Source: Narcine bancroftii (Eukaryota). Taken from it: DNA of 64,000 nucleotides. The stretch is taken from assembly GCF_036971445.1 (NCBI RefSeq), contig NC_091475.1, positions 27,590,001 to 27,654,000 of the forward strand, written 5' to 3'. Shown piece after piece: positions 1,411 through 53,419 of the stretch. Within the stretch, counting starts at the first letter, position 1; every line of letters begins with the position of its first letter. The translations under genes were made by a program, and so were the position numbers. Under the pieces are notes generated by a model. It did no database searches, had not been told where the DNA came from, and saw only the letters and a program-made list of their open reading frames with translations.

Positions 1411-3254
1411 AAGTATGATAATGCGAATATTTATTTGCCTCATCAGACTTTCTCCATGCAAAGCTCCAAGTGGAGAAACAGTTAATTCAGAAATGAATTG
1501 CTGAAATAGAAATGGATGCATGGAAAGTCAATACAGCTTTTTTAAAATGTAAAACTCCTGTTTGCAAAATGTACTAACTTTACTCCAAATGGAATTTGTA
1601 CAGTTTAGGAAATAGTTACGTTGATTTACAAAACAATTATTCAATTGTATAACAGGAATACCAGATGTTCCTTCTTTCAAATAAGATAAGAATGTACTCC
1701 TGCCACTTAAATTCTATTGTGGGAAATTTTCCACATCACATAAACACCATTGTTAATGTTATCACATTTTTACACCTCTTGTCAGCTTGTGCTACTTGGC
1801 AGCACGTTCTGACACCAATCTGATCACACTTCCTGACTGCCTTTAATGGTCACTAGATACTATTCATTCTCAACACTTTACAAAGCTCTTTAGTGCAGCA
1901 CAGAAAATTAAAAGAGGAAACACTGCACTATGATTTGAAATATCCTTTTCCTTGAATAGCTTTTACGGCAAAGTGTCAGGAAATGTGATTCTATGAGTCT
2001 TATTTAGTGTGCTAAAAACTATTATGTAGCCATTGATATAAATACACTCTGTATTACAACCTAATTATATATGTCAATATATAGGTTCACATTTCAAATG
2101 CAACTCTTCAATAACATTACCACAAAGAGGAAATTCATCTAAACACAGTTTATTTCATTGATATCTATCTTTATTTCTGAATTTATTGCCCTGAGACAGA
2201 CTTTCACTCAAGTGTAATTGTACCACAGTACCGCAGGATAATAAATATCTCTTTACAGCCATTCAGAGTTTTTCAAATTCCTTCCATTGGTTATCAGCAG
2301 ACAGTGCAATATCTGCTTATACAATGTTCATTAGTGACTGTCAGGAAAAAGAACATCACAAATAAAAATGACAGTGTTTGACAGAATTTTTTTGGTTCTA
2401 TCAAATATTTGATTTAATCTGCCTGTAGAAGAGGCAAATTCCAGGGGAGTCTAATAGACAAATGTGCTGGAGAAACTCAGCTGGTCATGCAACATCTATT
2501 GGAGGTATAGGGTAACCTAACGTTTCAGGCCTGGGCCCTTTGTCAGGTATACCAAGAGTTCACAAAGTGAAAGAGGCAGAAAGACTGGATTAAAAGCAAG
2601 AAAAAAGTCATCAAAGGTTAAAAATATACAGTTTCTATATATCCAACAGCAATTAATACCTGAATAGAGATCATACTGATAAAGATTATCTTCCATTGCT
2701 AAAAATGTGATGGGTATGTACAAACATTAAGTTATTGTGGTGGAATCATGTGTAGCTATACATAATGCTTGAAGGTTACCTTTTCATTGAGACAATACAT
2801 TCGTTTATAGCCAATACCAATATAGTCATCTCAGTTATTTTGTTGTTGCAGTGATCTTTGATGTCTTTGGACGTCAAGTTTAAAGTTTATTTTTATGGTA
2901 CAATCTTTAGTTATGGTTATCTTGTTAACTATTGGCTAATCCATTGAATGGACGACGCCCCAATTTTAGGCAATAGAAATACCTGTTCATTTTGAGTGAA
3001 TACATCCAAATTACATAATAATACTTGTAGTATCCAATTCTGCAGATCCAATTTTCCATAATTTCCACTTCATTTATTTTAATTCTTTTTGTGCTATTTA
3101 TACGCACATGTTGACTGACATTTCAAATTTGAGCCTTTGTCTATTTCCTATCTTCTTGGCTTTTCTCTTTTCTTTCACCCAGCATTAACATATCTTCACT
3201 TGCTCTTTATTCATACCTGACACGTCAGTTATGACACGTCAGTTATGTATCTTT

Positions 3255-3967
3255 CTTTTTTTCTTTGGCTTGGCTTCGCGGACGAAGATTTATGGAGGGG
3301 GTAAAAAGTCCACGTCAGCTGCAGGCTCGTTTGTGGCTGACAAGTCCGATGCGGGACAGGCAGACACGATTGCAGCGGTTGCAAGGGAAAATTGGTTGGT
3401 TGGGGTTGGGTGTTGGGTTTTTCCTCCTTTGCCTTTTGTCAGTGAGGTGGGCTCTGCGGTCTTCTTCAAAGGAGGTTGCTGCCCGCCAAACTGTGAGGCG
3501 CCAAGATGCACGGTTTGAGGCGTATCAGCCCACTGGCGGTGGTCAATGTGGCAGGCACCAAGAGATTTCTTTAGGCAGTCCTTGTACCTTTTCTTTGGTG
3601 CACCTCTGTCACGGTGGCCAGTGGAGAGCTCGCCATATAACACGATCTTGGGAAGGCGATGGTCCTCCATTCTGGAGACGTGACCCATCCAGCGCAGCTG
3701 GATCTTCAGCAGCGTGGACTCGATGCTGTCGACCTCTGCCATCTCGAGTACTTCGACGTTAGGGATGAAAGCGCTCCAATGGATGTTGAGGATGGAGCGG
3801 AGACAACGCTGGTGGAAGCGTTCTAGGAGCCGTAGGTGGTGCCGGTAGAGGACCCATGATTCGGAGCCGAACAGGAGTGTGGGTATGACAACGGCTCTGT
3901 ATACGCTTATCTTTGTGAGGTTTTTCAGTTGGTTGTTTTTCCAGACTCTTTTGTGTAGTCTTCCAAA
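3255..3967 (-). mobile_element. RTE-clade LINE, 5'-truncated 3' end
   Basis: Encodes an RT C-terminus (LRWMGHVSRMEDHRLPK) and ends in the family 3' end CCGCGAAGCCAAGCCAAAG. Candidate TSD GTATCTTT at 3247-3254 and 3972-3979. Confidence 0.9.
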
Positions 3968-6469
3968 TAAAGTATCTTTACCTCTTATGGATAATGCGAG
4001 ACCTGCTGAGTTTCTCCAGCATTTCTGTTTTTATTACAATCACAGTGTCTGCAGACTTTTGTGATTCATACCTTTACTTCTTAGATATTAAACACAATTA
4101 AGTGTAATTGTACCACAGCGCAATTGCTGATGAGCATTTATCTTTTGTAATAGCCTCCTATCGTTCATACACTAACCATCACTATTACTACTGAGATGAC
4201 AATGTAGCACTTATCACTACTCAATTGACTTCTCTGGCGTTATTGAGCAACTTATCCTGTACCATGGAAGTAAAACACAAAAAACTGTAGACTCCATGGT
4301 TGAAGTAAAAATGCAAAGCTGAAGAAACTCAGAAGGTCAAACAGTGTCCATTATCTAGCAATGGTAAAAGTATATATCTTGATCCGATGATAAAGGGAAT
4401 TAAGCCTGAAACATCCATTATGTATTTTTACATTTGCTAGATAAAGGACACTGTTAGACCTACTAAGTTTCTCCAGCCTTGTGTTTTACTTATCCCATAC
4501 CACCATTATGACATGAATATCATATTCTCCAATTTAAATTAACCCACACTCCTCCTCAGTTCCATTCCTAACATTCTAGTTCACCCAGGTCAAACAGAAC
4601 CTTTCCAAATCTCCTCACCCACCATCCCCCCCAGCCCCCTGCTACAGAGTTCCTTCCCCACCTTCCTTCTCCATCTATCCACCACCCACACACCCTTCCC
4701 GCTATATCCCTTACTTCATAATCCTCATCAGGCCACCATCCCTCATTGTTCTTACCTCCTTCCTTCAACAGCAGTCTCCACCTTCACCCTCCCCACCTTT
4801 TCCTGGCTCCACTTGCCCTCCCCCCCCCCACTTTTTTCTCTCTGCCTGCTTCCACTTATAACTGTCTCCCACATCTACAAAATCTGGCTCCATCTGACCC
4901 TCACCCCTCCTTTATCCATCTATTACCCATGATTACCCATTGACTTCCCCTCTTTTTAATACTGTCATTCTCCTCTCTACTTCCTCAGTCCTGATGCAGG
5001 GGTTTGAACCAAAGAACCAACTCTCCATATTCCTGCATGGATGTTACCCGAGTTCCTCCAACAGTTTGTTTTCTGTTCTAGATTCCATCATTTGCAACTC
5101 CTTGTGTCTCTACCCCCATCATCTTACTTTTACAATGGGCACAATCTACAAGTTAGATCCACCTATATTTGTCCCCAGAAGAATTCTTAAACCTCACTTC
5201 TTCATTCCTCAGAATTTAAAACTTTACCTCCTACTTCTTTTTTTGTATTCATATTCTGTCTTTTTTTGTATTCATATTCTGTCTGTTGCCTGCCATAGCC
5301 TCTCCCTCTGAGCTTTGCTCAAGCCCACCATTTGTTTGCTCAGTGGTGATTATTGTGGTAGCATGGCTTATATGGTAGGCCTGCACTGCAGCTGTGCTGG
5401 TTTATGGACAGGAGTGAGGAGTCATAGTTGGTGGGACTAATTCTTGTCACCTGATAGCCTGCTTGTATGGCCTTAGGCTCTCAGAATGCTGGCACATGAT
5501 GATTACTGATGTACTCATCAGATTTTTTGGAGCAATTTTACAGGCCAAAATTGTGGGGTTGATTTTTACGTGTCAAATTTCTGACCATGTTAAGTATCTG
5601 CGTCATTAAAGGAATCGAGAGCTCGGATGGCCAGGAGCTGGTAGACTGGTGACCGAGGCGTTGAAAGATCCAATGGGTGGGTGACCAGAACAAGGGTCTG
5701 CGATCGGGCTGTTGGAAGTTCTGGCGGGCAGGCAATAGTGGCCTCAAGAGCTCAGATGGGTGGGCAGTCAGAGCATCGGGAGCTCTGGTAGGTGGGCGGC
5801 CAAGGTGAGGATCTGTGGTCGGGGCGTCCTGAGCTCCGGTGGGCGGGTGGCAGAAGCTAAAAAAAATTTGGGGTCGATTTTTACGTGGGTCATATGAAAA
5901 CATACAAGTTTTGGGCCAAAAAAGGGGAGAGGAACATCAACTATTACTCAGTTTCAACAATTACACGAGTATGTACAATGCATAAAACCTATTGCTAGAG
6001 GAATGCTGAGTTCCTGCAGCAGCTTGCTTTGTGCTCCTGATTCCTGCATCTCCAAGTCAGAACAATGGATGCAAACTATTGTTGAGAGAATTGAATTCCT
6101 TTCAAGAATGGGAAGATACAACCTGGATGTAATGTGTGGCATCTTCCATCCTAAGACATCCCCAGTTCTCTTCTGATATCGTCATTCTTTAAAAATAACT
6201 GTTTCTCCAGGTGTAGACTCAATAGAATATTATACTTCAAACTATGATATATCACTGCTGCAGTATCAAAGTTATATCACGAAAGCTAAGTTTCACAGTC
6301 ATCTTGGTAGCCACAGGTATAACCCTTACACAGTGCAAAATCCTCAGTGAATGTTGACTCTTAAGCAGGTGAGAATAAAGTCATGTTAGATATTGCCCCA
6401 ACCCAAGTTCACCTGGAGGATGACAAGGCTTCCATCCCTCTTTTCAAATTTTTTTTTGTGTACAACAAG

Positions 6470-6681: not shown

Positions 6682-7850
6682 CTCACACCTGTTTCTACTC
6701 CTGCTTTCTTTGCTGTTCATCCTCAAGGACAAATTTACCAGGCCATCATTACTGCAGTCAAAGTAAATTTAATTTAGGCACAATCGATATAGCAAAGTTA
6801 AAAGCAGTTGTGTTTCACTTTACAGAACAAGAAACACATTGGACGTAAACAGAAAAAGTTGAAGTGACAATCCAGTAAAATTAAAGGATGATACAACAAA
6901 CTTAAATAGTACTGGCAAAGTGTCCTTTCCAATAGTATCACAAGTTACTGGTAGGTCAGATAGTGGAATTGAAAAGGTCCAACAACAAGACTAAGATCCT
7001 TATTTATATCCTTTTATGAATAATTATGAAAGGTACATTGGAAAACCATGGTGATCAGCAGCAGGGATGAGGGAACTTCCTGCCATTTTCGGGCTCCATG
7101 TACTTAGTTTAAAAACAGGTATGGTGCAATCAAATTTCTCAGTAAAATGCTGAGATGACATAAAAAATCTCCAAAGCCACTAGATGACCAATAATAATAT
7201 TTTCTCATGCAACAATACGTAATATCTCCTGAAGATAGTTACTGTATTTGCTGACCAAAGCTAGAATTACACCCTTGTTGTATCCTCCAAGTGAGTTACA
7301 TTATTTGAATTCTAACATGAAGAGTAATTGAGTAAACCTGAGGAGATTTCACTCATAGTGTGCAAAATATAGATTGGACCAGTGCAGGAAAAAGGATGGA
7401 ATTGTGTTTTAAATTGATTGCCTGTGTAATGCACTTAAGATGCCAACATCTGTTCCCATGGGGGGGGGGGGGGGGGGGGAAACACTAAAAAGAGAGGTAT
7501 AAATGATTCAAATAAAATTATGATGTTGATTGATGGTGCAGATGGAAAAGTTCCTTGTCTAGTTGGTGGAGTGTGATAATGTTGTAAAGTACGAAAAATG
7601 TGCGCAATTCAAGTAGCAAAAATGTTTGTTCTTAAAACTTCTAATTTTCAGAGTCTGTCAGCTCACACAGGAAGCATTGCAATGAACAAAACAATTTTGT
7701 GAAGAAACTGATTTTTAGCTCTCTTTGTTTCTCATTGGAAAGCCTCTGGTCACTGTTACACTCAGTAGGGTCAGTGGTCAGTAGACCAGGGCAACCTCAG
7801 CAGGGTTTTTTTTAACAAAATGCCAATTCACTCAATATTATCTTTCTCAC

Positions 7851-7935
7851 CCAGTTTCTTGGCCACCTTGGCATCTTTCTTCTCATCTACGAGTCCAAAT
7901 CCCACATTTTTGTCTTGCAAGACCTGAGCTGCCAA
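7851..7935 (-). CDS. casq2: Calsequestrin coding exon 2 ([29 protein letters not shown])
   Basis: 85-nt exon with cag acceptor and gtgag donor. The peptide matches calsequestrin. No downstream exons were found in 1-7850. Confidence 0.9.
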
Positions 7936-8209
7936 CTGCCTCCAAAAGACAAACAACAAAAAGAAGAAACAATGACATTTAGGTAGCCAGAAATCATCCG
8001 AGAATGTGAAAATCGGGCAACGTGCATCTTTACTCCACTGAGAAAGCACGCACCATGGTTTATAATGCTCCACATGGACAACCTCTTAATCATCGTCTGT
8101 CAATCATTCTGCAGAGAATGTTTTAATCCATTTGCTTAGCTTATCACCATATTACAGTGAATGTTCTGTTAAACCACCGCTCACCTGTCCTGAATCATGT
8201 TTGCCTCAC

Positions 8210-20380: not shown

Positions 20381-20653
20381 TGTGGGCTGATAACGCCTCA
20401 AACCGTGCATCTTGGCGCCTCACAGTTTGGCGGGCAGCAACCTCCTTTGAAGAAGACCGCAGAGCCCACCTCACTGACAAAAGGCAAAGGAGGAAAAACC
20501 CAACACCCAACCCCAACCAACCAATTTTCCCCTGCAACCGCTGCAATCGTGTCTGCCTGTCCCGCATCGGACTTGTCAGCCACAAACGAGCCTGCAGCTG
20601 ACGTGGACTTTTTACCCCCTCCATAAATCTTCGTCCGCGAAGCCAAGCCAAAG
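20381..20653 (+). mobile_element. RTE LINE 3' fragment
   Basis: Near-identical to the other RTE 3' ends (WADNASNRASW...SHKRACS). Confidence 0.9.
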
Positions 20654-21097
20654 ATATATATATATACTATTTCTTTGTAGTCCCTCATGTTCTTATTACA
20701 GTCTACTTTCTTGTCTATCATTGTACTGGCAGCAAATATGGAAATGATACTTTTCATGCTTTCATCCAGATCAAGGTTTCTATAGCACCCCACACTGTCA
20801 TATCGGCTTCAAGGTAACAGTTTTTTTTCTGCTACATACCCTTTAAATATTGTGAGCAGAAAGTTTATGATAACATTAGCATCACATTAGCTAACCATGC
20901 TAACAATTGCATGTCTTTTTAGACCATGTGGATATTTACTTCTGTTCAGTTAGTTATTTGAGTCTAAATACAATTCATGTTATTTTTACCAAAACAACAG
21001 ATAAAGAAAGCATAATGAAAACTTCACATCAAGCAATATTTACCTTTTTTTTTTAGATATTTTGAGAATGCTACTTAACTGAATTCCTGTAAACTTC

Positions 21098-24030: not shown

Positions 24031-24540
24031 AGTGAGGGTGACTGGATAATTATAGCATTGTCTGATTTTTATTTCTAGTTTTCTAGTAATTTTCTTATGA
24101 GAATCTTTATTTTTTGTAATTATGGCTTTTATTCCTCTCTTTTCTTCTCCTCTTGTCCTTCCTTCCTCCTTTCCTTCCACTCATTTCCCTCCAATCCTTG
24201 TATTCACTCTCTTGGTTACAAGCTATTTACAATGATATTGAACTAAAACATTTAAAAGTTATCCTTTATTCCATTCATTTTTTTCTTGCATTTTATTTTC
24301 TCCTGATAATTCCCAGAATTTCACTTGTTTTGGTTTATATAGTACTTTGTGCGTGTTCATAATTTAATTTGTAGAGAGGTAATTCTTGAGATGGACATAA
24401 TTTGACCAGATATAATTTGTTTCAGCCGTAAAAGAGTTCTAAGTACTCTCTAATTGTTAATAGATCTTCCTTCCAACATTGTCAAGAATATTGTATGAAT
24501 AAAAAAAAATCACTTGGGTGAATGGTCTGGGTCTTTGCAG

Positions 24541-25587
24541 GATTATGAAGATGAAAACATTGAAGCCAAAATTGATAAAGAGCTGTGTGATGAAGAAGAA
24601 CAACTCAGGGAAAGCCTAGATGATGAGAAGAATTTTGGGGGTCAATTAGAAATAGAACGTGAAATGAATGAAGAATTATATAAAGATACAGAAAATGCTA
24701 ATGAAGGGGAAAATGTTACCATGGTTACTTCTGCTCCTGCATCAGACACAGTCGATGAGAGCTCGTTCAAAGAATTGAAGCAGGAGGATCAGCAAGATGA
24801 AGAGCAGAGTGAGGAAATAAAAGACTATATAATGAAAAAGATTGAGCAGGCCAACAAGGATCTTAAGGATGAAGATCCTGTGGATCAAAATCGAGAACGC
24901 AGATTGAAATTCAAAGACGATTTAATTGACTTGGTGGTCCCACCTGCAGAGTTTGCTGAAAGAGAAAGAATCAATGGAGAGATCACAGGTCCAATGTCAA
25001 TAAAGCATATTTCAAATGATGTTCAAAATAACAATGACAAACAACCCATGGATCACTTGTCTGTAAAGTATATTTCAAATGATGTCCAAAGGGATAATTA
25101 CGGAGAGGTAACAGATCAGATGTCTCAAATCCATATTTCAAATGCTGCTCAAAAAACTGATGGTACAGAAAAACAGCAGGATGAGAATAAAAATAAGGAC
25201 AAAGACGTACTGATGGAAAAGGATGGAAAATTTGAACTTCTGAGTTTGCAAGATTTTGAAAGTCAAGATGTACTACCTCAGATTAGTGTTGCATTCAATG
25301 AAATTGAATGGGAGCAATCAAACAATTCTAAAGGAAGAAGCCTCTCCAGCAGTCAGAGCAGTTTATCTCCCTATCCAACAGAAGAACTGAATGCACTAAA
25401 ACCGCCAGAAAAACAAAAGTATCTTGTAACTTCTCCATTGAACACACAGAATGGAATTCAAAATGGACTACCTCGAAGAACACGATCTGCAGTAGTTTCC
25501 TCAAAACAATCTTCCCATCTTATTGTACCAGAAAACAAAGAATTTAACTGGAGAACTCCACAAAAGAAGGAGCATCCAAAGATAGAG
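24541..25587 (+). CDS. ccdc181: CCDC181 large coding exon 2 (349 codons)
   Basis: YIMKKIEQANK, RERRLKFKDDLIDLVVPP and EKDGKFELL match CCDC181. tttgcag acceptor, gtaaac donor, phase 0-0. Confidence 0.93.
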
Positions 25588-26031
25588 GTAAACTTGGATT
25601 ATAAGTTATTTAAATCAAGTTCATTTGTTTCAAAATAGTTTGTGCTCTCTTATAAGATTTGTACTATTTTCGTAGAGCCTTAGGTGGAGAATATAGGATT
25701 TTCTTTACTTTTAAGTGGTGTTTGCTTGTTATAAATGGAACTATAATGTTAAAATGCAGGAGGAATATTTAGGATTGTCTTGGGACATAAACATTTACTG
25801 TTTCAGCAATCAAAAATGACTTTCACCATCATTTTTATATTTTGTTGTGTATCCTTTTATGCTACATATATCCAGATTTTCCTTTCGGAGGGAAGGGCAA
25901 ATCTACCTCATCTCTGTGATAATGTCCAACAAAGTAGCAAAATATATTAATGGAATATGGAGATATTTGGGGAGTTAAACTCATAGTGTGGCCTGATATA
26001 CTTTTCTTTTGTAAAATCACAAAGCTAAGAC

Positions 26032-28260: not shown

Positions 28261-28951
28261 ATGCATAGATGAATTTGTGCCCCCTCTGCGAGACCCCTGC
28301 GACATTCTACCCCTCCCATGATGACGTTCTCCCCCTCTCCCTTGACATTGTCTCATTGTCTGTGAGAGCCTTCTCCTCTGTGTGAGACCCATCTCTTCTG
28401 TGAGGGACCTATGTCTGTAAGAATCCAGCTCTCTCTCTCTGCAACACCACCTCTTTCTGTAACACTTTCAACAAGTGGCGGATTAACTACCATCTGGGCC
28501 CCTAGGCTGAGCTTTATTAAGGCCCCCCCCCCCACCCCGACTTGGCCTCCCTGGTTGCCCTCCCATCACATATTCTAAATTTTTCCTCAGGTATGTACTT
28601 GGGGTGTGCATGTGTAAGCTGTGCTCGGTGATGGCAGGATAGAATTGATGTGTTGTGTGGCAATAGCCCAGTGGAGAGAGCTGCATGAAGAGGGAAGGGA
28701 TTGGGCTGGTAGTGTGGTGCCTTGGTGCTGGCTGCTGGTGAGAACCTCATCACCGGACTCTGACTCAGGCCTTCATGTATGGCTGCCACAGGTACTGTGT
28801 ACTTACCTTCCTTGATAATGTAACTGCTGATGGCAGTAGCCAAATGAAATCTGAGGTATATAGAAACACTGTGTCTGCTCAGGTTTGAGCAAATGCCTCC
28901 AAACTCATTGGACTGCAATTCATCCTACAGCAAGACAATGACCCCAAATAT

Positions 28952-30590
28952 TTTCTTTGGCTTGGCTTCGCGGACTAAGATTTATGGAGGGGGTAAAAAG
29001 TCCACGTCAGCTGCAGGCTCGTTTGTGGCTGACAAGTCCGATGCGGGACAGGCAGACACGATTGCAGCGGTTGCAGGGGAAAATTGGTTGGTTGGGGTTG
29101 GGTGTTGGGTTTTTCCTCCTTTGCCTTTTGTCAGTGAGGTGGGCTCTGCGGTCTTCTTCAAGGGAGGTTGCTGCCCGCCAAACTGTGAGGCACCAAGATG
29201 CACGGTTTGAGGCGTTATCAGCCCACTGGCGGTGGTCAATGTGGCAGGCACCAAGAGATTTCTTTAGGCAGTCCTTGTACCTTTTCTTTGGTGCACCTCT
29301 GTCACGGTGGCCAGTGGAGAGCTCGCCATATAACACGATCTTGGGAAGGCGATGGTCCTCCATTCTGGAGACGTGACCCATCCAGCGCAGCAGGATCTTC
29401 AGCAGCGTGGACTCGATGCTGTCGACCTCTGCCATCTCGAGTACTTCGACGTTAGGGATGTAAGCGCTCCAATGGATGTTGAGGATGGAGCGGAGACAAC
29501 GCTGGTGGAAGCGTTCTAGGAGCCGTAGGTGGTGCCGGTAAAGGACCCATGATTCGGAGCCGAACAGGAGTGTGGGTATGACAACGGCTCTGTATACGCT
29601 TATCTTTGTGAGGTTTTTCAGTTGGTTGTTTTTCCAGACTCTGTTGTGTAGTCTTCCAAAGGCGCTATTTGCCTTGGCGTGTCTGTTGTCTATCTCATTG
29701 TCGATCCTTGCATCTGATGAAATGGTGCAGCCGAGATAGGTAAACTGGTTGACCGTTTTGAGTTTTGTGTGCCCGATGGAGATGTGGGGGGGCTGGTAGT
29801 CATGGTGGGGAGCTGGCTGATGGAGGACCTCAGTTTTCTTCAGGCTGACTTCCAGGCCAAACATTTTGGCAGTTTCCGCAAAGCAGGACGTCAAGCGCTG
29901 AAGAGCTGGCTCTGAATGGGCAACTAAAGCGGCATCGTCTGCAAAGAGTAGTTCACGGACAAGTTTCTCTTGTGTCTTGGTGTGAGCTTGCAGGCGCCTC
30001 AGATTGAAGAGACTGCCATCCGTGCGGTACCAGATGTAAACAGCGTCTTCATTGTTGGGGTCTTTCATGGCTTGGTTCAGCATCATGCTGAAGAAGATTG
30101 AAAAGAGGGTTGGTGCGAGAACACAGCCTTGCTTCACGCCATTGTTAATGGAGAAAGGTTCAGAGAGCTCATTGCTGTATCTGACCTGACCTTGTTGGTT
30201 TTCGTGCAGTTGGATAATCATGTTGAGGAACTTTGGGGGACATCCGATGCGTTCTAGTATTTGCCAAAGCCCTTTCCTGCTCACGGTGTCGAAGGCTTTG
30301 GTGAGGTCAACAAAGGTGATGTAGAGTCCTTTGTTTTGTTCTCTGCACTTTTCTTGGAGCTGTCTGAGGGCAAAGACCATGTCAGTAGTTCCTCTGTTTG
30401 CGCGAAAGCCGCACTGTGATTCTGGGAGAATATTCTCGGCGACACTAGGTATTATTCTATTTAGTAGAATCCTAGCGAAGATTTTGCCTGCAATGGAGAG
30501 CAACGTGATTCCCCTGTAGTTTGAGCAGTTTGATTTCTCGCCTTTGTTTTTGTACAGGGTGATGATGGTGGCATCACGAAGATCCTGAGG
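28952..30590 (-). mobile_element. RTE LINE, 5'-truncated, with an uninterrupted 528-codon RT reading frame
   Basis: ORF 29007-30593 with QCGFR, FVDLTKAFD, GVKQG and LFADD motifs. TSD CAAATAT at 28945-28951 and 30591-30597. Confidence 0.95.
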
Positions 30591-30790
30591 CAAATATACT
30601 GTTAAAGTAAAAGCTGTTTTTCAATCTAAAAATGAAAATTCTTGAATGGCCAAATCAATCATCCAATCTAAATCTAATTGAGCATGCCTTCCATATGCTG
30701 AAGAGAAAGCAAGAGGACAAGGCCCCAAAACAAGCAGGAGCTGAAGATGGCTGTAGTAGAGGTCTGGCAGAGCATCACCAGAGAAGACAC

Positions 30791-38361: not shown

Positions 38362-38544
38362 TCACAGGACTGTTAATTCTCCTGTGCAATGATTGCAACA
38401 ATTAAATGTGATATTTTCATATCTGGTATACGGATGAAATCGTCCAATACTCTTTTTATTAGAGAGAAATGTGGCTGGGGATGCATCGCAGAATGGAACG
38501 ACTGTTGCTTTACTACAGATTGCAGGATCCAACATCTTTAAAAC
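38362..38544 (-). CDS. blzf1: Golgin-45 (BLZF1) last coding exon
   Basis: IGRFHPYTRYENITFNCCNHCTGELTVL*, the conserved C-terminus that binds GRASP55. Confidence 0.95.
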   Translation of the reverse strand, partial: VLKMLDPAICSKATVVPFCDASPATFLSNKKSIGRFHPYTRYENITFNCCNHCTGELTVL

Positions 38545-39367: not shown

Positions 39368-39587
39368 CTTTTCAGCCATTTTTTCAGCAGGTGTGTTGCA
39401 GAATTCCATTTGTTGGTTAGTCTTTTGTGCATTACTTATATTTAGTTTTCCAAGAAGATGACAATTTACAGCCTCAGCTAATTTAAAATTGGCAGAAGCA
39501 AGTTCTGCTGTGGTGAGTGGTTGGGCACAAGGATAGTAGGTTTGTTGCCGACCCCACTGCAGTGATACCAAGAGCTCTTCAAGAAAT
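39368..39587 (-). CDS. blzf1: BLZF1 exon 6
   Basis: FLEELLVSLQWGRQQTY...FCNTPAEKMAEK. 220 nt, phase 2-0. Confidence 0.95.
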
Positions 39588-39700
39588 CTATGAAATATAA
39601 AAATAAATTACTTGATAGTTTGTTCTCTGCAAAACTAATTTACACAATTTCAACTCAGGGCGTGCGCGCATATGTATATAAATATATATTTTTATATATA

Positions 39701-40060
39701 TAGATCTCTAAAGACAGTTGAAAATAGCTATAGCAAAGTTGATCTTTACAGATTTTTGTGTAAATATATATGTATATACACACATACACATACTTAAAGT
39801 ATTACTACTGCATCTTAAAGCTGTCCTCTCTGGCTCACAAAAATCTGTAAAGATCTTCAGTATCATTTTGAGCGCATGGCTCGTGAAAAAAATCAGTTAA
39901 TCCTGGAAAATGATACTTTGAATCAAAATCCGTCTCAACTTTCTGAGCAACTGGAGAGGATGACCATACAGTGTGACGTATGGCGCAGCAAGTTCCTTGC
40001 GAGCAGGTTACTAGCCTATGGCATTTTGCTATAGCTATTTTCAACTGTGTTTAGAATCTA
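39701..40060. repeat. Fold-back structure containing an inverted copy of blzf1 exon 4
   Basis: 39701-39737 pairs with 40025-40060, and 39741-39760 pairs with 39836-39855. 39852-40026 is the reverse complement of 40814-40988. Confidence 0.95.
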
Positions 40061-40399
40061 GAATGCTGAAAAACTATCTGAAAATGAAAATTAAGCTTTT
40101 ATTTTAACAAGTTGGAACCACTCCTTTAATAATAAATATTGAGAAAAATGCAGCATCAGTTTTGAGTTGTTTAAATATGAGAAAAAGTGACAGGGCAACC
40201 TAAATGTTCATCACTGTAAATATGTTTTCCTGAGATACAAGTACTTATCAATGATAGGCACCATTCAGTGGTAATCTGCTTAATTTATGGACATTGCTTT
40301 CCTAAGAATGTTGAAATTTCTTTGTAACTGTTGGAGAGTTGAGGTTTATTGATTAATTGATAAAGCATGATCTGACATTTGAGGAAAAAAAAAGCATAC

Positions 40400-40528
40400 C
40401 TATGGGCATCAACCAGATCCTGACGAAATTGTTCCCGTTCCATGAGAAGATCCTGAATAGCACTCTGAGTTTCTCTAATATGATGCTGCAATGATGTCCT
40501 GGAATGGGACAGCTCATCAGCCATTACT
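40400..40528 (-). CDS. blzf1: BLZF1 exon 5
   Basis: VMADELSHSR...AIQDLLMEREQFRQ. 129 nt, phase 2-2. Confidence 0.95.
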
Positions 40529-40833
40529 CTGGGTGAGACGATGATCAAAACAAATTGTTATTTATAAAATTACAACAGACCAATTCAAATTATAAAAATT
40601 AATGCATTTAAGAAATAACTCAGGAATGTAGTTTACATCAAAAATAAGCTCTGAAGCCATTGTACAGTTTTTGACACAAATGAATGCAATTTTTTGAAAA
40701 CACTGAAATGTTAGCCAAAGTATTAAAACAAAATACATTTTAAGCAGCATATTAAAACAAAAAAAAGTTGTATCTAATTTTATTCAATTCTACTTTTTTG
40801 TTGAATTTACTTCAAATGCCATAGGCTAGTAAC

Positions 40834-41033
40834 CTGCTCGCAAGGAACTTGCTGCGCCATACATCACACTGTATGGTCATCCTTTCCAGTTGTTCAGAAA
40901 GTTGAGACAGATTTTGATTCAAAGTATCATTTTCCAGGATTAATTGATTTTTTTCACGAGCCATGCGCTCAAAATGATACTGAAGATCATCGCCAACAGA
41001 GGCCACAAGCAATTTTTTCAATTCACGATTCAC
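40834..41033 (-). CDS. blzf1: BLZF1 exon 4
   Basis: VNRELKKLLVASVGDDLQYHFER...QCDVWRSKFLAS. 200 nt, phase 0-2. Confidence 0.97.
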
Positions 41034-41334: not shown

Positions 41335-41780
41335 CTCAGACTGTACCCGGATTTGATTAGCAAGCCCTTCTTTATCCTGAAGGAGTCTTCTTTCAGAACA
41401 ATGAGATTTTTCAATGGCAGCTTTAAGTTCAGTCAGCTCTCTTTTGAGTTCAATTGTATTTTCTAACTGACTTGACAATTCACCTTTATGGGAACCTGCA
41501 AAGTCAGTCAGTTTTATACTCTTTGCAGGAAGTTCATGAATTATAGCAGCTTTGGGAACCAAAATCCTAACAGCTTCTACTTCAATTGCTTGTTTTGGCT
41601 GAATTTTCCCAAGCTGAAGAATGCCAGGCTTAGCAATAACTTGAGAAGAACTGGATGTTACATTAGTTCGCAGAGCAAAATAACTTTTTTTATTTATTCC
41701 TGACGTATTTTCCATTGGTTTGGCTGGTTCTTCTGTTTCCATTCCATCTCCAGGTCCACGGATGGATCGTACTTTCGGAA
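41335..41780 (-). CDS. blzf1: BLZF1 exon 3
   Basis: IRGPGDGMETEEP (tankyrase-binding-type RxxxDG motif), AVRILVPKAAI and SERRLLQDKEGL. 446 nt, phase 1-0. Confidence 0.95.
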
Positions 41781-44554: not shown

Positions 44555-45185
44555 TTTGTCATACCCACACTCCTGTTCGGCTCCGAATCATGGGTCCTCT
44601 ACCGGCACCACCTACGGCTCCTAGAACGCTTCCACCAGCGTTGTCTCCGCTCCATCCTCAACATCCATTGGAGCGCTTACACCCCTAACGTCGAAGTACT
44701 CGAGATGGCAGAGGTCGACAGCATCGAGTCCACGCTGCTGAAGATCCAGCTGCGCTGGATGGGTCACGTCTCCAGAATGGAGGACCATCGCCTTCCCAAG
44801 ATCGTGTTATATGGCGAGCTCTCCACTGGCCACCGTGACAGAGGTGCACCAAAGAAAAGGTACAAGGACTGCCTAAAGAAATCTCTTGGTGCCTGCCACA
44901 TTGACCACCGCCAGTGGGCTGATAACGCCTCAAACCGTGCATCTTGGCGCCTCACAGTTTGGCGGGCAGCAACCTCCTTTGAAAAAGACCGCAGAGCCCA
45001 CCTCACTGACAAAAGGCAAAGGAGGAAAAACCCAACACCCAACCCCAACCAACCAATTTTCCCCTGCAACCGCTGCAATCGTGTCTGCCTGTCCCGCATC
45101 GGACTTGTCAGCCACAAACGAGCCTGCAGCTGACGTGGACTTTTTACCCTCTCCATAAATCTTCGTCCGCGAAGCCAAGCCAAAG
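44555..45185 (+). mobile_element. RTE LINE 3' fragment
   Basis: Open RT C-terminus. TSD ACATCCAA at 44547-44554 and 45186-45193. Confidence 0.93.
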
Positions 45186-46047
45186 ACATCCAACATGGAC
45201 AATACAAAAAAGAAACACATTTAACATGGAGAAATGCAAGGTACAAGGCTTTAGATGAAACCTGGAAGTTCTGATACAAGACAATAAGGCTCAGAAGCAG
45301 AATTTGGCCATTTGACCCATTGAATCTTCTCTGCCATTCGAATCATGATTGATGAATTTTTCTTCTCAACCCCATTCTCCTGCCTTCTCTCTGTAACCTT
45401 TAACACCCTTATCAAGAACTTATCACCCTCCATTTTAAATGACGGCCTCCATAGCCATCTGTGACAAACCTTTACACATATAAACACAACTTTATATTCA
45501 GTATTCTAAGTGCTTTCTCCTCAAATTCTTTGGAAATTTTTCTTGCGTGGGGAATATCCTATTTCCACTCAATTGTGTGAGAGATTTAAAAAACATGGGA
45601 TAGGCCATTACACACAAAACATCATCTGGACATGAAAGAGCAAAGTCTTGATCAACCACAGGTCAAATGTGACTGGAAACCAGGTTTTGACTTAGAAATT
45701 GTAAATTACCAAAGATTCGGGATCAAATCCTTACAGTTCCTGGGTATGCACATTACTCTAACTAAAGTTTGATACAGATTTAACATAACCTACATACTTT
45801 CAGTTTCATGCCTCTAGCTTATTTTTATTTATGCACTTGTTAATTTATGAGAAATATTAATTTGTGGAATAAGAGGGTCAAACATGATCATTTTCAATAG
45901 CAGAGCAAGCTCAAAGTAGCCTCTTCTAGTTTATCTATGTTTCTGTGTTTGCCAAATAATATCTTGTCTATCAAAATGCATTATGCAGTCCTCATTTGTC
46001 ACCAAGAGATATTAATAAGCAAAAAAAAAAGCAAATCTACTACCTAT

Positions 46048-49381: not shown

Positions 49382-50054
49382 AAAATTGCTGGAGGAACCC
49401 AGCAGGTCTCTCAGCGTCCATAGGAAGTAAAGATATATAACCAATGCTTTACTGCTGAGCCCTTCCTTCTTCAAGGTCCTCCAGCAATTTTGGGTATTAT
49501 AGCTAAAATGCTGGAGGAACCCAGCAGGTCTCTCAGCGTCCATAGGAAGTAAAGATATATAACCAATGCTTTACTGCTGAGCCCTTCCCTCTTCAAGGTC
49601 CTCCAGCAATTTTGGGTATTATAGCTAAAATGCTGGAGGAACCCAGCAGGTCTCTCAGCGTCCATAGGAAGTAAAGATATATAACCAATGCTTTACTGCT
49701 GAGCCCTTCCCTCTTCAAGGTCCTCCAGCAATTTTGGGTATTATAGCTAAAATGCTGGAGGAACCCAGCAGGTCTCTCAGCGTCCATAGGAAGTAAAGAT
49801 ATATAACCAACGCTTTACTGCTGAGCCCTTGCTTCTTCAAGGTCCCCCAGCATTTTTGGGTATTATAGCTAAAATGCTTGAGGAATTCAGCAGACACAAA
49901 AATGTTGGAGGACCTTGAAGAAGGGCCCAGACGTGAAACGTTGGTTATATATCTTTACTTCCTATGGAAGGCGGAAGCGAAGAGACCTGCTGGGTACCTC
50001 CACTAATTTTGTATTTGCACTACTATCACAGCGTCTGCAGACTTTCATGTTTCA
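49382..50054. repeat. About 4 tandem 122-bp units of a Penelope-like terminal repeat plus an inverted copy
   Basis: Period 122 is visible (identical ORFs at 49471, 49593 and 49715). About 49893-50054 is the reverse-complement arm. Confidence 0.9.
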
Positions 50055-51645: not shown

Positions 51646-52227
51646 CTAGGCTCCTAGAACGCTTCCACCAGCGTTGTCTCCGCTCCATCCTCAACATCCA
51701 TTGGAGCGCTTTCATCCCTAACGTCGAAGTACTCGAGATGGCAGAGGTCGACAGCATCGAGTCCACGCTGCTGAAGATCCAGCTGCGCTGGATGGGTCAC
51801 GTCTCCAGAATGGAGGACCATCGCCTTCCCAAGATCGTGTTATATGGCGAGCTCTCCACTGGCCACCGTGACAGAGGTGCACCAAAGAAAAGGTACAAGG
51901 ACTGCCTAAAGAAATCTCTTGGTGCCTGCCACATTGACCACCGCCAGTGGGCTGATAACGCCTCAAACCGTGCATCTTGGCGCCTCACAGTTTGGCGGGC
52001 AGCAACCTCCTTTGAAAAAGACCACAGAGCCCACCTCACTGACAAAAGGCAAAGGAGGAAAAACCCAACACCCAACCCCAACCAACCAATTTTCCCCTGC
52101 AACCGCTGCAACCGTGACTGCCTGTCCCGCATCGGACTTGTCAGCCACAAACGAGCCTGCAGCTGACGTGGACTTTTTACCCCCTCCATAAATCTTAGTC
52201 CGCGAAGCCAAGCCAAAGAGAAAAAAG
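51646..52227 (+). mobile_element. RTE LINE 3' fragment
   Basis: TSD AAAGGATCTCT at 51635-51645 and 52228-52238. Confidence 0.93.
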
Positions 52228-53419
52228 AAAGGATCTCTAATTACAAGATTGCTAATTTTCCTGTCTCATTGCGCAGGTCCAAATCCAAGGTGGCATGTTT
52301 CCTTGTAGGTTCAGTATCATGCTTTTCAAGAAACCCAGCATATTCTATGAAATTTTCCTCAAGGTTGTGAACCTATCAGAACTTTTCCTTAATGACTTAA
52401 TTGTTTTATTGTCATCAATAGAGGATGAGCAAATGTAGGTTCTTGGGAGTCACTATCTCGGAAGATCTTTCCTGGAACCAACACACCAATGGCATCATGA
52501 AGAAAGCCTCTACTTCCTCAGGAGTTTGCGGAGGAGTTAGTGGAGTTGTTCAAGTGAACCGGTACGGACTTGAAGGGCCGACATGGCCTGTTTCCGTGCT
52601 GTAAATGGTTATATGGTTATATGGTTAATTGGACCATTATTTCTGTGTTGGGGCATTGTTAAAGTTATCTATTTGATTCACTTCTTTGATCTTTCCCATT
52701 TGATTTTGTTTTCTCCAGGTTTTGTTTACAGTTTTCTTGTAACTTGTTAAAGATTCTTTTAAACCAGAAGAGTTTAGTGCAGCATTTATTGCAATCTATC
52801 TTTTCACTCAAAATCTCAGTCCCTCTCTACTCAGAAGAGGGAAACAATTGTACAGTTTTCATGGGGTGTGCAATTTTGGAATTCTTCCTCTTGTACTTTG
52901 AACATTTACTTGTACTAGACTGAGAGTGAAGCCAACAATCAATCTGATCAATATAGATATTTCTATATAGACTGGCTTTAAGTTTAATTTAGCAGTTGCC
53001 TTGTATTATTAAAATCCCATTGAGATTGTGTATTATTGGGCAGTTGGCATGTGGCTTGGTACGTTGTACATGAGCATAGATACTGTGAGCAATAGTGAGG
53101 TGTTAAGTCAGCTCTTGTATTTAATGTTCATGGTTTATCAGATTTCATACTACCTTACACGATCTCATTTATCAAAAATCCATCTAACTCTGCCTTAAAA
53201 ATATTGAAAGGCTCTATTTCTGTAACCCTTTGAGGAACAGAATGCTGAAGATTCATGACCCTCTGAAAGAAAAACAAAATGCCTCTTTTGTCTAAATTGG
53301 GTTTTTAAAAGGTGACATTTACATTTTCGTATGAGGAAATGTCCTCTGCACACTAGCCCATCGGGGATTCTGAGAGATTGGCTCCATCTATATTTGGAAA
53401 GGCAAAGACTAGAAATAGT

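Follow-up and report, generated by a model that had tools for sequence, protein, structure and literature searches.

Results

The blzf1 gene

The window, a 64,000-nt stretch of Narcine bancroftii DNA, carries blzf1 on its minus strand. The joined exons reproduce residues 12-402 of P0001, a protein labelled golgin-45 from the same species (tblastn combined with splice signals). Exon numbers follow the preliminary description of the locus; the coding exons alone were verified, and 'exon 4' is the third of these. In transcript order the region comprises an exon at 41335-41780, exon 4 (200 nt, 40834-41033), exon 5 (129 nt, 40400-40528), exon 6 (220 nt, 39368-39587, spliced to exon 5 in sequencing run X5) and an exon at 38362-38544, all on the minus strand. 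Exon 5 is, as had been proposed, 129 nt long and skippable in frame, with a loss of 43 amino acids. Skipping of exon 4 or of exons 4 and 5 together, or retention of either intron, places a stop 211-917 nt upstream of the last junction, and such early-stop transcripts are likely targets of decay. Among the 127 fetched homologues that have both anchors, none lacks a block the size of exon 5.

The 3' part of exon 4, copied and inverted in intron 5

Intron 5 (812 nt) holds, in antisense orientation, a copy of the 3' part of exon 4. Self-BLAST of the window (E=2e-79) aligned 39852-40026 with the reverse complement of 40814-40988 at 170 of 175 positions, ungapped and with 787 nt between the arms, which reproduces the match given in the preliminary description. 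The source arm (40814-40988, minus strand) consists of the final 155 nt of exon 4 (40834-41033) plus the first 20 nt of intron 4 and includes the splice donor CAG/GTTACT; this content, too, is as previously described. The copy (39852-40026, plus strand) is antisense in the blzf1 pre-mRNA, and its limits follow from the self-comparison and from the outgroup comparison below. The new bases proper are 39856-40024 (169 nt), which stand in place of the three letters AAC.

The copy splits a target segment into a left half (39836-39855) and a right half (40025-40060). An inverted copy, 60 nt long, of this segment in its uninterrupted form lies at 39701-39760, within an (AT)n/(AC)n tract. Here 39741-39760 pairs with 39836-39855 at 20 of 20 positions, and 39701-39737 pairs with 40025-40060 with one substitution and one deletion, so the inverted repeat of about 60 bp with an interrupted right arm is as it had been described. 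The segment 39701-39760 is likely a second templated insertion.

Both junctions carry microhomology. At the left junction GATC, which ends the left half, is common to source and target. At the right junction, where TTT had been suggested, the shared motif is TTTG, with which the right half starts; the product has one additional T, and the strict overlap is TT. On the source side TTTG occupies intron 4 positions +18 to +21, and GATC lies within exon 4. No target-site duplication flanks 39701-40060. The copy has neither a poly(A) tail nor an exon-exon joint, and its exon sequence runs on into the intron.

Seven of 16 sequencing runs were compared (X1-X3, X6, X11 and X13-X16 were outside the comparison). 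DNA run X4 (N. bancroftii), possibly the sample behind the assembly itself, yielded a 175-nt contig with 0 differences from the copy and two further contigs that enter the copy by 30 nt from each side, one letter under the threshold for bridging. The X4 contigs thus carry the copy's own five letters and reach across each junction. An X4 joint of 39855 to 40025 with AAC was considered as an empty allele and rejected, as it falls by position on 39707-39737 in the left arm. When 39690-40080 was searched against the genome, the matches were its own locus, the source exon and one 77% match in a microsatellite, counts that are lower bounds. Existing X4 contigs and a single locus together argue against both an artefact and a transposon family.

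The empty site in a related species

Organism C, a related species represented by DNA run X10, gave a single 1237-nt contig that extends from exon 4 across intron 4 and exon 5 and reaches intron 5. At the insertion site it reads 39828-39855 (0 differences from the window), AAC and, directly after AAC, the counterpart of 40025-40055, at depth 10 and with no exon copy. The two species differ at about 24-25 of 344 nt in the blzf1 intron (∼ 7%). Organisms C and E hardly differ, so that the outgroup amounts to one lineage; organism B contributed three short pieces, all identical to the window and all outside the insertion site. The orthologous intron 5 of organism C, the kind of comparison that the preliminary description had called for, has AAC and lacks the copy. 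Since organism C has both the right arm and AAC, the right arm is ancestral and the exon copy alone was inserted. The suggestion that all of 39836-40060 was newly templated is thereby contradicted, as 39828-39855, AAC and the counterpart of 40025-40060 are all present in organism C. To the left of about 39809 the letters of organism C are unlike those of the window (39761-39808), which indicates that the AT/AC tract region was rewritten in one of the two lineages.

Origin of the copy

The locus matches a local templated inverted insertion in the features tested: the ancestral allele is empty, the template lies within 5 kb, the insert is shorter than 1 kb, the junctions show microhomology and 3 nt were lost. 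The two microhomologies and the ancestral allele of organism C support the template-switching origin put forward earlier, and a single out-and-back template switch of a polymerase, in replication or in break repair, likely produced the copy. From the ancestral site GATC-AAC-TTTG seen in organism C, a minus-strand 3' end would have doubled back over about 790 nt to TTTG, been extended in reverse for 175 nt and, at GATC, returned to its original template. The 60-bp inverted repeat beside the AT tract may have arisen in the same episode or may have provoked the break. As the left arm (39701-39760) retains AAC, it was copied from the uninterrupted target, either earlier or within the same episode, and, given that the intron measures 812 nt, the landing of the exon copy within one 60-nt arm suggests a link between the two events. 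The scars of different repair pathways overlap, and break-induced replication, fork switching and polymerase theta are not told apart by them.

Divergence and age

All five differences between exon and copy are A>G or T>C in the direction of the copy, and four are at silent positions. At 39896, 39947 and 39956 organisms C and E carry G, as in the copy; at 39931 and 39977 they carry T, as in the exon. By parsimony, the exon would have gained three silent G>A changes (40944, 40893 and 40884) and the copy two T>C changes (39931 and 39977). An A-to-I editing or reverse-transcription signature in the copy, which the direction of the five differences might suggest, was therefore rejected: three of the five arose in the exon. 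One of the T>C changes in the copy would give Leu>Pro, and Pro occurs in none of the 114 homologues with the anchor (120 fetched); these changes speak for a copy in decay.

The copy has changed at two of 175 positions, as against ∼ 3.5% per lineage in the intron (P 0.11-0.8, depending on the assumed age), a low count that fits chance and also mild constraint. Both numbers of changes are consistent with an insertion about halfway between the split from organism C and the present. An insertion so old is probably fixed, although a single DNA sample covers the site. The data do not support selection for exon changes that weaken the duplex described below: the 3:2 split between exon and copy falls short of significance (P 0.07-0.15), and the mismatches take away only 13 of 331 kcal/mol. 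The silent exon changes at 40944, 40893 and 40884 each place an A opposite C in the predicted duplex, where the RNA contigs read A. A opposite C is the geometry favoured by editing enzymes; editing at these three positions would silently restore the ancestral G.

Frequency of similar copies

We surveyed 1.264 Mb of the same contig, this window included, in tiles for inverted pairs of at least 40 nt and at least 85% identity under a complexity filter, which misses pairs with very short loops. The survey gave 28 local inverted pairs, nine rows of which had no dispersed match within the sample. Four other inverted copies of at least 100 nt each matched their own locus alone in a genome search. 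One lies in the window (21559-21671/22628-22740; 113 nt, 95% alike, 956 nt apart, two genome places only) and three elsewhere in the sample (L011, 6683-6786/8536-8639; L098, 849-979/3140-3270; and L074, with three local copies at 5999-6059, 6835-6974 and 7911-8050). The loops of all single-locus pairs measure 0.8-2.5 kb, partly an effect of the filter. A further inverted pair in the window (26879-27035/27332-27491; 160 nt, 94%, 296 nt apart) has one arm that partly matches a dispersed repeat.

Single-locus inverted copies of at least 100 nt thus occur at 3.2 per Mb (0.9-8.1). This extrapolates to ∼ 3,000-27,000 copies genome-wide, provided that the sample is typical, one of the four having come from this non-randomly drawn window. 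With four others in 1.264 Mb such scars are common here, and at this rate some would be expected to take in coding exons by chance.

Predicted duplex and observed RNA

In folds of the pre-mRNA segment that comprises exon 4, intron 4, exon 5 and all of intron 5, the copy and its source form a 175-bp helix in both the minimum-energy and the centroid prediction, at -318 kcal/mol as against -44 and -27 kcal/mol for the small arms. In predicted folds of the growing transcript the donor, a non-consensus GTTACT, is 38-39% unpaired until the antisense arm emerges and is fully paired after 27 nt of the arm. That arm begins 808 nt past the donor and 374 nt past the end of exon 5. The proposal of a ∼ 175-bp duplex that masks the donor and loops out exon 5 therefore stands as far as in silico folding is concerned.

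The RNA evidence comes from runs X5, X7 and X8, three of four RNA-like runs of N. bancroftii; they belong to one study and were guessed to be RNA, and their contigs drop rare forms. Each of the three gave one normal exon 4-5-6 contig with genomic letters, which differs from the copy at the five genomic positions. Alternative joints or a majority A-to-G change were not seen in these contigs. The three runs contributed no intron contig, which bears neither way on retention. Normally spliced mRNA dominates at the level of contigs, and these do not show the cis-antisense action that had been proposed, although minor or degraded forms drop from contigs: skipping of exon 4 or retention of intron 4 leads to early stops and likely to degradation, and contigs would miss such transcripts. 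As a plus-strand exon the copy has no strong acceptor among the 13 AG sites in 39690-39900, and no RNA contig carries its letters.

Discussion

Relation to known inverted duplications

In the 1000 Genomes map of human germline structural variants, short 'Inverted Dup' insertions (less than 1 kb, inserted inverted within 5 kb) form the commonest class of inversion call, at 54% (PMC4617611). The blzf1 copy is likewise short, inverted, near its source and not retrotransposed, but the ray event is old and its source is the end of a coding exon with a splice donor. It also resembles microhomology-mediated templated insertions (MMB-TI), in that the template is local and inverted, both junctions show microhomology, a few bases are lost and the original template is regained (PMC8421209), and, as in MMB-TI and the four-point switch, the site lies beside a quasi-palindrome (PMC8421209; PMC7954356). 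In the four-point scheme the order here is 3-2-1-4, which is compatible with an intra-strand fold-back (PMC7954356). A copy of 175 nt taken from ∼ 0.8-1 kb away exceeds the great-ape gold-standard set, which has a median of 12 and a maximum of 128 nt (PMC8421209; PMC7954356).

Two human alleles, an inverted duplication of CHM exon 12 (1.75 kb; PMC8756506) and one of MANBA exons 8-11 (13.1 kb; PMC6549551), cause pathogenic exon skipping. Like blzf1 they have a gene's own exon inverted in a downstream intron, microhomology at the junctions and a predicted pre-mRNA hairpin. As described there, the CHM and MANBA copies hold whole exons and both flanks, whereas the ray copy takes in 155 of the 200 bases of the exon plus 20 of the intron; unlike them, it has survived for long enough to accumulate differences, and normal mRNA is dominant. 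The predicted fold is also reminiscent of loop-out skipping and circRNA formation between inverted Alu elements, where an exon sits in the loop of a long RNA stem (PMC13019027; PMC4201285). Unlike inverted Alu pairs, one arm here is the upstream exon itself and no transposon is involved, and neither skipping nor a circle was seen in the contigs. Our literature search, with subscription journals and supplements lying outside it, found no paper on this locus, and nothing usable on blzf1 splicing or on the evolution of inverted exon duplications.

A tolerated repair scar or a dampener

We consider it probable that the inverted copy of the exon 4 end and donor is a template-switch repair scar carried as a tolerated passenger. 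It is likely tolerated because commitment of the donor to splicing would precede transcription of the antisense arm, the delay of 808 nt (374 nt past exon 5) leaving a window for spliceosome commitment. Against this, the duplex is predicted to be very strong and to bury the donor fully, and, by analogy, the CHM and MANBA alleles of the same layout do skip exons.

A less probable reading grants the same origin but lets the duplex divert a measurable share of transcripts, either by in-frame skipping of exon 5 or by skipping of exon 4 or retention of intron 4 followed by decay. The copy would then act as a cis-antisense dampener of golgin-45, whether selected or tolerated. The 175-bp helix in both predicted folds, a donor whose unpaired probability falls to 0 and whose letters are non-consensus, and the precedents of CHM and MANBA (PMC8756506; PMC6549551) and of inverted Alu loop-out skipping (PMC13019027) all speak for such an effect. 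The normal contigs from all three RNA-like runs, the exon 5 block kept in every homologue with both anchors, and an exon 4 acceptor and first 45 nt that the copy, unlike that of CHM, leaves uncovered speak against it. In addition, exons of up to 400 nt circularized poorly in a ZKSCAN1 reporter (PMC4201285). No result of the analysis shows a regulatory role. We regard as unlikely the stronger form, a standing dampener in which a race between donor commitment and the 175-bp fold-back would set golgin-45 output, or yield an isoform minus 43 residues, and would be tuned by transcription speed or water temperature.

It is improbable that the copy was written from blzf1 pre-mRNA, by RNA-templated repair or reverse transcription, and not from DNA. 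Intron letters in the copy are what nascent RNA would supply, and the uniform A>G or T>C direction of the differences looked editing-like at first. Yet three of the five changes arose in the exon; poly(A) and a target-site duplication are absent, while a 3-nt deletion and two microhomologies are present; and four other sites in the 1.264 Mb carry similar local copies. More improbable still is capture of the exon by a hairpin-type non-autonomous transposon spanning 39701-40060, which the preliminary description had offered as an option: inverted ends do flank part of the region, but the exon copy splits one arm and does not sit between the arms, organism C has the right 'end' as old intron sequence, and the genome search (lower bounds) revealed no second locus beyond the 77% microsatellite match. 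An assembly artefact in the form of a fold-back chimera is scarcely credible: sequencing can create local inverted copies and X4 may be the same sample, but the five differences sort 3:2 against the outgroup, the stronger of the two arguments, and separate X4 contigs carry the letters of the copy and extend 30 nt past each junction.

As a repair scar the copy is ordinary, yet it is unusually well resolved, with the empty ancestral site and both microhomologies known. As an allele it is a natural experiment: the layout is of the CHM/MANBA type, which in patients abolishes exon inclusion, and a weak donor is covered, yet normal mRNA dominates. An account of why it is tolerated here would improve predictions of the harm done by intragenic inverted duplications. 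Should the duplex after all dampen golgin-45, the exon-overlapping members of an estimated ∼ 10,000 copies in this genome would offer a ready-made series in which the window of opportunity for splicing could be measured.

Other features of the window

An acidic open frame of 379 codons (24499-25638, plus strand) faces blzf1. Pfam and the atlas were blank for it, and it may resemble ccdc181. A young dispersed repeat is present in five copies that are 98-99% alike (3251-3967, 20382-20657, 28951-29660, 44556-45186 and 51649-52231). A reverse-transcriptase frame, presumably of the RTE-like class, occupies 29007-30620 on the minus strand, and a tandem array with a period of 122 nt, its units 94-97% alike, extends over 49383-49893.
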